Source of the DNA: Minisyncoccota bacterium
Lineage (GTDB): Bacteria; Patescibacteriota; Minisyncoccia; Phycocordibacterales; CSBR16-119
Direction: 5' to 3'
DNA length: 64,000 bases
NCBI GenBank assembly: GCA_041389065.1
Contig: JAWKSM010000001.1
Location: 80,320-144,319, forward strand
This document shows, piece after piece, positions 57,477-58,091 of this stretch (its first letter is position 1; every line of letters begins with the position of its first letter). The notes under the pieces were generated by a model that made no database searches, was not told the DNA's origin, and saw nothing but the letters and a program-made list of their open reading frames with translations. Position numbers and translations under genes: made by a program.

Positions 57477-58091
57477 ATGAACCACACAAAAGAAGTACTT
57501 ACTTTCGGAGTCAGTCTCTATAACTCTTACTTTACGGAAGATCGAATAATCAGGCTTTTGCAATGTGTTAATAGTCCTGATCGCAAAATTTATCTTGTAA
57601 TAGTTGACTTACCAGCTACTCACAACCTGAGGGCTATTGGCAAGAATGATTCTTATATTGCAAAGAAGGTGCGTCAACATGGCAACAACATCACTAATCG
57701 ATGCAGGCGTGCCATCGAAGCTTCTGGGGTAGATGCCACCGTCATGACTTTTGAAGGAATCGCCTCTTCTGCAGTATATAGATATGGAGTTCTACAATTC
57801 CACAAGCTCTATAACGAGGATGCAAAGTTTCGTCTTGATGCAAGGAAAGTAACATCGGATGTTTTGTTCAACAAGTTGGGGGTAACAGCTGACGAACAAC
57901 AAATAGACATTGCCGTTTCTTTCCTTTTAGAAGAGCTATCATTCTTCTGGTGGGGAGATGAGATACTGGGTGAGGATCACATGGTCAATGCTTACCATAG
58001 TGAAATGAAAATCTTGAGCGACCTCATAGCCGGCGCTTACAACATCGAAACGAGGCCCAGTATCTCACACAAGGTGATCTCTGTTGAATAA
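57477..58091 (+). CDS. cyclodipeptide synthase (CDPS) family protein (tRNA-dependent); GC-rich
   Basis: N-terminal VLTFGVSLYNSYFTEDRI matches the CDPS catalytic-Ser motif (AlbC GISAGNSYF / YvmC VGISPFNSRFSEDYI); later FLLEEL matches the YvmC YYLLEEL (Y/E catalytic pair region); size about 200 aa. Confidence 0.6.
   Translation: MNHTKEVLTFGVSLYNSYFTEDRIIRLLQCVNSPDRKIYLVIVDLPATHNLRAIGKNDSYIAKKVRQHGNNITNRCRRAIEASGVDATVMTFEGIASSAVYRYGVLQFHKLYNEDAKFRLDARKVTSDVLFNKLGVTADEQQIDIAVSFLLEELSFFWWGDEILGEDHMVNAYHSEMKILSDLIAGAYNIETRPSISHKVISVE

Follow-up and report, generated by a model that had tools for sequence, protein, structure and literature searches.

The reference enzyme of the NYH subfamily of tRNA-dependent cyclodipeptide synthases (CDPSs) is AlbC of Streptomyces noursei (PDB 3oqv, 4q24), which belongs to the albonoursin cluster together with a cyclodipeptide oxidase and carries a flexible 27-residue N-terminal extension (residues 1-27) that is disordered and lies outside the fold (PMC3105412). 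YvmC (PDB 3oqh), found in Bacillus subtilis and B. licheniformis, is also of NYH type; its gene shares a transcript with cypX, which encodes a P450 tailoring enzyme. In B. subtilis, both yvmC-cypX and the divergent gene of the winged-helix protein PchR (YvmB) are repressed by PchR, which attaches to palindromic boxes located between them (PMC4992311). From the candidate phyla radiation (CPR, Patescibacteria), ParcuCDPS (CDPS 90; PDB 7QB8, 7QAQ and others) of Parcubacteria RAAC4_OD1_1 is a member of the XYP subfamily that has been assayed and solved in seven crystal structures (PMC5816076, PMC7613923), and with this precedent the presence of a CDPS in a minimal or CPR genome is already known. 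Here we describe a CDPS gene and its divergent partner gene in a 64,000-nucleotide stretch of a Minisyncoccota (Patescibacteria) contig (JAWKSM010000001.1, positions 80,320 to 144,319; henceforth the window, in whose coordinates all positions are given unless a comparison locus is named).

Routine annotation would already name this gene a CDPS, and NCBI and JGI label its relatives tRNA-dependent cyclodipeptide synthases, so its bare identification is not new. What is new is a CPR-associated NYH lineage with Phe at the position of AlbC Tyr178, which occurs almost always as a two-gene cassette with its own predicted regulator and a conserved candidate operator. Our overall reading, which we consider probable, is that the gene encodes an active NYH-type CDPS making a bare cyclodipeptide, under the control of a divergent winged helix-turn-helix (wHTH) partner acting via a palindrome. 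The elements concerned are:

56490-57335, minus strand: the partner, a predicted dedicated transcription regulator of 281 residues, with a winged helix (residues ~10-66), a linker helix (68-83) and a phospholipase D (PLD)/Nuc-like alpha/beta domain (97-270).
57350-57374, no strand assigned: the candidate operator palindrome ATTAGTGTTA-ATAAA-TAACACTAAT, with the core AGTGTYA-N5-TRACACT, 15 bp upstream of the partner start.
57477-58091, plus strand: the NYH-type CDPS gene, 204 residues, with the signature S13/N16/D44/F149/E153/Y173-H174 and a basic alpha-4 helix (residues ~56-84).

An original prediction, made from the DNA letters, had called the 204-residue open reading frame (ORF) a CDPS, with coordinates and an ATG start that proved exact. 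Profile searches bore out the family call, with thresholds passed three- to fourfold: the ORF scored 102.4 bits against Pfam PF16715 (gathering cutoff 27, E=3.9e-29, residues 8-201) and 124.2 bits against NCBIfam TIGR04539 (tRNA-dependent cyclodipeptide synthase; cutoff 45, E=5.4e-36, residues 5-202). Significant sequence matches in the PDB were to CDPSs only (YvmC, BtCDPS, AlbC, the S. haemolyticus cLL synthase, Rv2275 and the P. gingivalis CDPS), and YvmC (3oqh) was among the best of them (E=1.3e-12 with the single sequence and 3e-13 with the family profile, with which BtCDPS came slightly ahead). An AlphaFold2 model built on 25 orthologues was of medium quality (mean confidence score, pLDDT, of 71) and, when submitted to Foldseek, retrieved only CDPS crystal chains at ranks 1-42 (TM ~0.55), followed by TyrRS-derived synthetases from rank 43. 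The model thus shows the Rossmann-type fold resembling class-Ic aminoacyl-tRNA synthetases, its N-terminal strand being poorly modelled. Neither of the outcomes that the original prediction had named as refuting it was obtained. By profile and alignment the ORF is a genuine member of the tRNA-dependent CDPS family, with catalysis predicted from its residues. ParcuCDPS resembles it in being compact and short at the N-terminus (catalytic Ser26 there, Ser13 here); by contrast, it gave no sequence match to the window CDPS in the PDB searches, ranked 40 among the fold matches, and is an XYP enzyme that makes cHis-Pro and cHis-Glu.

The short N-terminus of the ORF is real, since an in-frame stop lies 20 codons 5' of the ATG without an intervening ATG, GTG or TTG. 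Relative to AlbC, 24 residues are absent, corresponding to the flexible AlbC extension. The gene was also described as GC-rich, which holds only in relative terms: its GC content is 0.42 (0.43 at third codon positions, GC3), compared with 0.36 for the window and a GC3 of 0.17-0.31 in seven neighbouring genes. The CDPS gene is maintained, as judged from the ratio of nonsynonymous to synonymous divergence against its orthologues (dN/dS 0.07-0.18), and the partner gene shows a ratio of 0.03-0.06, both at dS 0.6-2.4; the two genes are under strong purifying selection. A pseudogene or degenerate CDPS was rejected on the basis of this ratio together with the intact signature.

To place the catalytic residues, AlbC positions were mapped by profile alignment, the PDB index of AlbC being its native numbering. 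The correspondences are S13 to S37, N16 to N40, D44 to D68, E153 to E182, Y173 to Y202, H174 to H203, F149 to Y178, S155 to P184 and N171 to L200. The N-terminal motif named in the original prediction is present (G11-V-S13-L-Y-N16-S-Y-F19), and the strings quoted there for AlbC (GISAGNSYF) and YvmC (VGISPFNSRFSEDYI) agree with the PDB sequences. Ser13 aligns with Ser37 of AlbC and its YvmC equivalent, and is invariant in the 25 orthologues and at 12 loci that carry the cassette (module loci). The orthologues vary little or not at all at S13, N16, D44, E153, Y173 and H174: E153 and Y173 are the same in every one, and two have N or Q in place of H174. The residues N16, Y173 and H174 place the enzyme in the NYH subfamily. 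Across the 12 module loci the signature SNDFEYH is unchanged over a range of 25-100% CDPS identity. The alpha-4 helix holds seven Lys/Arg in residues 56-84 and six to nine in all relatives, a basic patch read at sequence level. Asp44, invariant here, is the counterpart of the Asp that hydrogen-bonds the catalytic Ser in ParcuCDPS (D58).

A second motif, the LLEEL block (L150-L-E-E153-L154), had been proposed to contain the catalytic Tyr and Glu. The Glu is there as E153, but the Tyr is not: the position of AlbC Tyr178 is occupied by F149, a Phe that is invariant in all 25 orthologues. Family-wide conservation is seen at the positions of the Ser, the Glu and Tyr202. The YvmC block given for comparison, YYLLEEL, does not occur in YvmC; the aligned segments are AVEYVIAELPFF in YvmC and AVSFLLEELSFF in the window CDPS. 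We then scored this site in the best 149 representatives of 50%-identity clusters from a hidden Markov model (HMM) search of a 1.84-billion-protein set and found Phe in 49 and Tyr in 96, the Phe group being concentrated in the top matches. All Phe-group representatives show the G-S-N...F...E...Y-H context, and the named ones all come from Patescibacteria (Paceibacterota, Nomurabacteria, "Patescibacteria group"). Phe at the 178 site is thus, by alignment, the mark of a large subclade of CDPSs.

Such a substitution raises the possibility of a neofunctionalised CDPS-like enzyme, in which Ser13 is still loaded but the aminoacyl or dipeptidyl group passes to another acceptor, or which acts as an aminoacyl-tRNA sensor or deacylase. 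Beyond the Phe at the Tyr178 site, which never varies in the lineage, the Pro184 site holds Ala or Ser, the characterised CDPSs in the literature compared include none of the Phe-type subclade, and AlbC Y178F is strongly impaired in acyl-enzyme formation and activity ("poorly active", PMC3105412). Yet none of the remaining catalytic residues varies, Tyr173 among them, and it is this Tyr that cyclisation specifically requires; ParcuCDPS Y167F, changed at the 178-equivalent position where the window CDPS is naturally Phe, and the Tyr-to-Phe variants of three XYP enzymes, four other CDPSs in all, keep making product (PMC7613923); and a quantum mechanics/molecular mechanics study found cyclisation not to involve the Y178 hydroxyl directly. 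We regard such a change of function as quite unlikely, and the window CDPS as very probably active, judging by its conserved residues.

As an active CDPS, the window enzyme would draw on two aminoacyl-tRNAs, one after the other. Ser13 would accept the aminoacyl group of the first, held in the P1 pocket and positioned by Glu153 and the aromatic ring of Phe149, and the second aminoacyl-tRNA would yield a dipeptidyl-enzyme, whose cyclisation to the diketopiperazine Tyr173 would aid. Because no tailoring enzyme is linked, the bare cyclodipeptide would be the end product. The P1 pocket hints at an aromatic residue in it, probably Tyr or Phe. The original prediction was correct in finding no adjacent tailoring enzyme at the locus, and in the surroundings of the compared loci no gene for tailoring, be it an oxidase, a P450, a methyltransferase or another enzyme, is conserved, unlike the linkage of AlbC to its oxidase.

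What the first amino acid might be was read from the pocket residues, located from published AlbC positions. P1 consists of T9-G11-V41-V43-F92-F156-F157-N171 (TGVVFFFN; family consensus AGVVWFFN) and P2 of V125-D128-V129-N132-S175-M177-K178 (VDVNSMK). P1 shares five of eight residues with the Phe-accommodating pocket of the AlbC group (LGVVLFFT) and four of eight with NYH cYY pockets, and its terminal Asn171 is common to NYH cTyr-Tyr synthases; in AlbC, L200N shifts the P1 preference from Phe to Tyr. The LGVVLFFT-like P1 together with Asn at the AlbC L200 site suggests, as a reasonable guess, an aromatic P1 residue, perhaps Tyr (or Phe). Apart from the P1 overlap, the window CDPS differs from AlbC at three of the aligned positions (Y178 to F149, P184 to S155 and L200 to N171), and it differs from YvmC, which has Tyr at 178 and a cLeu-Leu pocket. 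The label "cyclo(L-tyrosyl-L-tyrosyl) synthase" that JGI gives to relatives was rejected as a default name, since the ORF scored 36.7 bits against the cyclodityrosine equivalog NF052540 (cutoff 300). Compared with the cYY motifs VG[IV]TMLFN and L..[FY]..QLP, it shares only G35, V65, F186 and N200 (AlbC numbering). Most other CDPSs of the CPR module have a different and highly conserved P1, IGMPWFIY, which resembles the published Pro/Leu-type xGxPW motifs, and the P1 of one locus (L011) is intermediate between the two types. The window subclade is therefore set apart by a remodelled P1, along with a further-shortened N-terminus, a leader hairpin (see below) and a CDPS GC3 that is 12-18 points above that of the adjacent partner gene, an excess confined to this subclade.

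A central question is whether the neighbouring regulator gene is an incidental neighbour. The partner and CDPS genes lie on opposite strands with their starts 141 bp apart. Genomic context was taken from orthologue loci (numbered L001 onward in our comparison), an exact-sequence look-up of the window CDPS having returned no encoding contig. Divergent adjacency of CDPS and partner was found at 12 of 13 distinct CDPS loci of the lineage, in unrelated neighbourhoods, and the palindrome accompanies the two genes at all 12. In close relatives, with CDPSs 66-83% identical to that of the window, the same divergent pair recurs; partners only 44-48% identical to that of the window are again divergent from a CDPS in unrelated surroundings (L007, L008/L009 and L014); and of four distant Phe-type CDPSs, 25-35% identical to the window enzyme, three have the partner (L030, L031 and L032; hmmsearch E<=1e-130). 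Remoter paralogues of the partner (25-39% identity, L015-L027) have no CDPS. At L032 (3051-4636) the cassette, together with a SIS-domain gene, sits within the spc ribosomal-protein operon between rplE (L5) and rpsN (S14), which indicates that the regulator-CDPS pair moves as a unit, and at L004 the pair and the downstream tRNA-Arg gene are inverted relative to their flanks. Thus, the partner is a conserved, dedicated partner of the CDPS. The original prediction had seen next to the gene only a wHTH regulator paralog; a 28%-identical paralogue does exist in the window (28089-28943), but the neighbour itself is more than that.

Judged by analogy, PchR and yvmC form the closest experimentally proven counterpart of the pair. 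The two systems differ in that PchR is a ~19-kDa MarR protein, while the partner has 281 residues, a PLD-like C-terminal domain and no MarR signature, and in that yvmC shares its transcript with cypX. The literature on ParcuCDPS, by contrast, yielded no regulator pairing.

The fold of the partner, compared with the PDB by Foldseek, combines a wHTH with a TrmBL2-like C-terminal domain and has the wHTH, coiled-coil helix and PLD-like alpha/beta architecture of TrmB regulators; its best full-length match is the DNA-binding TrmBL2. The TrmBL2/TrmB proteins of Thermococcales (PDB 5bpd/5bpi, 3qph, 2f5t; PMC4158304) resemble it in possessing a wHTH, a dimerising helix and a PLD-like alpha/beta domain, in length (264 residues for TrmBL2, 281 for the partner) and in an invariant Tyr of the recognition helix (Y50 in TrmB, Y45 in the partner). 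They differ in that they show no significant sequence similarity, come from an archaeal and not a bacterial (CPR) host, and are linked to sugar metabolism where the partner is linked to a CDPS. Membership of the TrmB family by sequence was rejected: the best hit to Pfam TrmB (PF01978) had E=0.026 and matches occurred in only 5 of 32 partner-family members, PF11495 gave no match, and hhalign of the partner with the canonical TrmB protein of the window (31798-32556) returned a probability of 0.2%. The likeness is at fold level only, and we predict that the partner works and is shaped like a TrmBL2/TrmB-type regulator, with DNA binding as its likely activity, without filing it as TrmB family. Its conserved motifs are KFKNPNLMGIYWAH, YHPHEW..R...SE, GGNT.LD and NV.GD.

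A PLD/Nuc-like domain could also mean that the partner is not primarily a regulator but an enzyme or nucleic-acid-acting protein, engaged in product or tRNA processing, with its wHTH as a targeting module. However, the HKD motif of Phospholipase D/Nuc enzymes (HxK(x)4D(x)6G[ST]xN) is absent from the partner-family alignment, the HxK(x)4D part being missing from the partner sequence too; the best full-length match is a DNA-binding protein; the conserved palindrome lies exactly where an autoregulatory operator would be; and paralogues accompany unrelated genes. Such a role seems to us very improbable.

The paralogue at 28089-28943 (minus strand) is full length (28% identity, E=3e-40) and has no CDPS. 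It has a palindrome of its own, AAAAAGTA-N3-TACTTTTT, at 28972-28990, ~30 bp upstream, and is divergent from a 167-residue ORF without Pfam match (29036-29539, plus strand), which is followed by a weakly SDR-like 281-residue ORF (29623-30468, plus strand). This suggests that members of the family act locally, every one paired with a distinct operator and cargo.

Each of the 12 module loci has the core of the palindrome between the partner and the CDPS in an unchanged position, even where partner identity falls to 44% and CDPS identity to 25%, and the arms of the palindrome vary symmetrically (Y/R). It is kept in the CDPS-less partner orthologues L012 and L013 and is absent at all paralogue loci. 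The arm-and-spacer geometry equals that of the TGM motif of TrmBL1, TATCAC-N5-GTGATA (PMC4158304), with arms of 6-7 bp and a 5-bp spacer in both. In the 64-kb window there is one exact match, and two matches with at most one mismatch where 0.26 are expected by chance. The one-mismatch copy (32752-32768) was considered as a second regulon site and rejected, since its place at the tip of another leader hairpin accounts for it better (see below). A further element lies on the CDPS side:

57402-57408, no strand assigned: an intergenic TAGTCAA/TGTCAA box that equals one operator half-site, ~45 bp from the palindrome towards the CDPS.

This box is invariant in the intergenic alignment, and TGTCAA(A/T)AT is found at a like position in L007, L008, L014, L030, L031 and L032; it may serve as an additional half-site or belong to a promoter. 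A sigma-70 promoter scan of the intergenic region found no convincing CDPS promoter. From its conservation, the palindrome is predicted to be bound by the partner: a dimer would bind AGTGTYA-N5-TRACACT in the shared 141-bp intergenic region and regulate, whether by repression or activation, both its own gene and the CDPS.

Downstream of this region and beyond the CDPS, we identified three further features:

57429-57480, plus strand: a hairpin in the CDPS 5' leader, with its core stem-loop at 57441-57469 (dG -20.1 kcal/mol, z -4.8).
58110-58147, plus strand: an intrinsic terminator with a 12-bp stem and a T-run, 19 nt past the CDPS stop.
58265-58337, minus strand: a tRNA-Arg(GCG) gene downstream of the CDPS, which accompanies the pair in the window subclade.

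With its own intrinsic terminator after the stop, the CDPS gene is taken to be monocistronic. The extended stem of the leader hairpin pairs with the start-codon region of the CDPS, and no Shine-Dalgarno sequence is evident upstream of that start. Five loci share the 26-nt hairpin core without a single difference, although synonymous sites between them are close to saturation (dS 0.6-2.4). At L011 (partner 63% identical) the loop is kept, and in the stem one T-A pair is replaced by G-C and a G.U pair occurs, changes that favour a function at the RNA level. The hairpin is unique in the window and absent at distant module loci, and an Rfam search of the intergenic region and leader gave sub-threshold noise only. 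In the window subclade the structured leader would occlude the start codon and so add a second, post-transcriptional layer of control.

The tRNA-Arg(GCG) gene also lies downstream of the CDPS at L001 (10962-11034), L002 (5505-5577), L004 (10769-10841) and L031 (5064-5136), the last of these having a CDPS only 28% identical to that of the window, and it is absent beside the pair in L007, L008, L014, L030 and L032. This linkage could be simple synteny or a hint to the substrate.

The constancy of the pair could also be explained by a synthase-receptor function, in which the cyclodipeptide is a diffusible signal and the PLD-like domain of the partner its receptor, for a LuxI/LuxR-like autoinduction or for host-sensing by an episymbiotic CPR bacterium. 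The tight two-gene linkage without tailoring or export genes is consistent with such a circuit, as are the autoregulatory position of the operator, the movement of the cassette as a unit (inverted at L004, inserted at L032) and the ~180-residue non-DNA-binding domain of the partner, which has strongly conserved polar motifs and a fold that serves effector sensing in TrmB. By contrast, P1 differs between subclades (xGVV[W/F]FFN versus IGMPWFIY) although the operator is the same and the partners are 44-48% identical, the invariant C-domain residues are common to paralogues not linked to a CDPS, and no ligand is known for TrmBL2, the closest structural match of the partner (PMC4158304). We consider this explanation unlikely.

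Several observations weigh against our reading of an active CDPS under the control of its dedicated partner. In the AlphaFold2 model, residues 1-17, which include the catalytic-Ser strand, and residues 187-204 have a pLDDT below 50. Since AlbC Y178F is poorly active, reduced or altered chemistry is possible for a natural Phe enzyme. The P1 and P2 motifs fit none of the published specificity groups, so that the product named above is a guess. The palindrome adjoins the partner start and lies ~100 bp from that of the CDPS, a position by which autoregulation of the partner is better supported than control of the CDPS. The top conserved polar residues of the partner C-domain are also invariant in a paralogue not linked to a CDPS, which speaks against a cyclodipeptide-specific pocket being defined by them. 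Finally, the association of the two genes has exceptions in both directions: L029 is the one Phe-type CDPS locus found to lack the partner, and three partner orthologues (L012, L013 and the P0059 locus) have no adjacent CDPS.

Two of these exceptional loci have neighbours of their own. At L029 a tRNA-Trp(CCA) gene (3857-3930) lies 70 bp upstream of the CDPS (4001-4687) on the same strand. At L013 the CDPS-less partner orthologue, with its palindrome, is divergent from a 112-residue ORF followed by a class-I TyrRS-like gene with HLHLG and KMSSS motifs (2233-3450, minus; 3525-3863, minus; 3980-4816, plus). TyrRS is a structural relative of CDPSs. Elsewhere, in L001, Fpg is separated from a TrmB-family regulator by two inserted genes (3347-4075 and 4541-5959), a solitary Cas1 and an OrfB_IS605 (TnpB-like) gene, a few kb away from the cassette.

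The minimal look of the genome, remarked on in the original prediction, fits its host, a Patescibacteria/Paceibacterota metagenome-assembled genome (MAG): the neighbouring protein matches a hypothetical protein from a Candidatus Paceibacterota MAG at 100% identity, and orthologous CDPS loci come from MAGs labelled Patescibacteria and Saccharibacteria. A recent horizontal gain from outside the CPR, which the higher GC content and the adjoining tRNA gene might suggest, was rejected, as the nearest relatives are all from Patescibacteria and the CDPS is syntenic (S20-RuvA-Fpg side) in several genomes, one of them distant.

Other features of the window were recorded alongside. The canonical Pfam-TrmB regulator (54 bits; 31798-32556, minus strand) is divergent from a GC-rich gene for a PLP-dependent enzyme (PALP; 32784-33875, plus strand), and a PALP gene adjoins the CDPS-less partner orthologue at the P0059 locus. 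The PALP leader forms a hairpin (32740-32775; dG -22.9, z -3.3) that ends just before the ATG; it has the same design as the CDPS leader, and its apex is the one-mismatch operator copy. Patches with a GC content of 0.46-0.52, against 0.36 for the window, lie at 10001-12000, 32001-34000 and 40001-42000, and at least one of them (32-34 kb) is protein-coding (PALP). At 59590-61013 (minus strand), 1.5-3 kb downstream of the CDPS, a gene for an extracytoplasmic function (ECF)-type sigma factor (Sigma70_r2, r4) is followed by genes for a 269-residue multi-pass membrane protein, in all likelihood the anti-sigma factor, and for a secreted repeat protein. A tRNA gene at 1254-1327 (minus strand), adjoining tRNA-Glu, was given a two-base anticodon ("ca", undetermined) by ARAGORN and scored as a normal tRNA in Rfam (61.8 bits).

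At ~1.6 kb, the two-gene unit with its candidate operator and RNA leader is experimentally tractable. The Phe178 lineage offers a natural test of the need for the "catalytic" Tyr178 hydroxyl, and the partner represents an uncharacterised putative regulator family that no Pfam model describes. Were the pair a signalling cassette, it would be a widespread circuit in Patescibacteria by which ultra-small, host-dependent bacteria communicate or sense their hosts, built from charged tRNAs, and NYH enzymes with Phe178 would constitute a class specific to the CPR, whose product specificity has diverged between subclades. CPR bacteria have a minimal metabolism and are mostly unable to make their own amino acids. 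That a conserved enzyme, kept under purifying selection and by prediction individually regulated, would divert charged tRNAs into a diketopiperazine in such cells implies that the product matters to the CPR lifestyle, for example in host interaction, signalling or antagonism.

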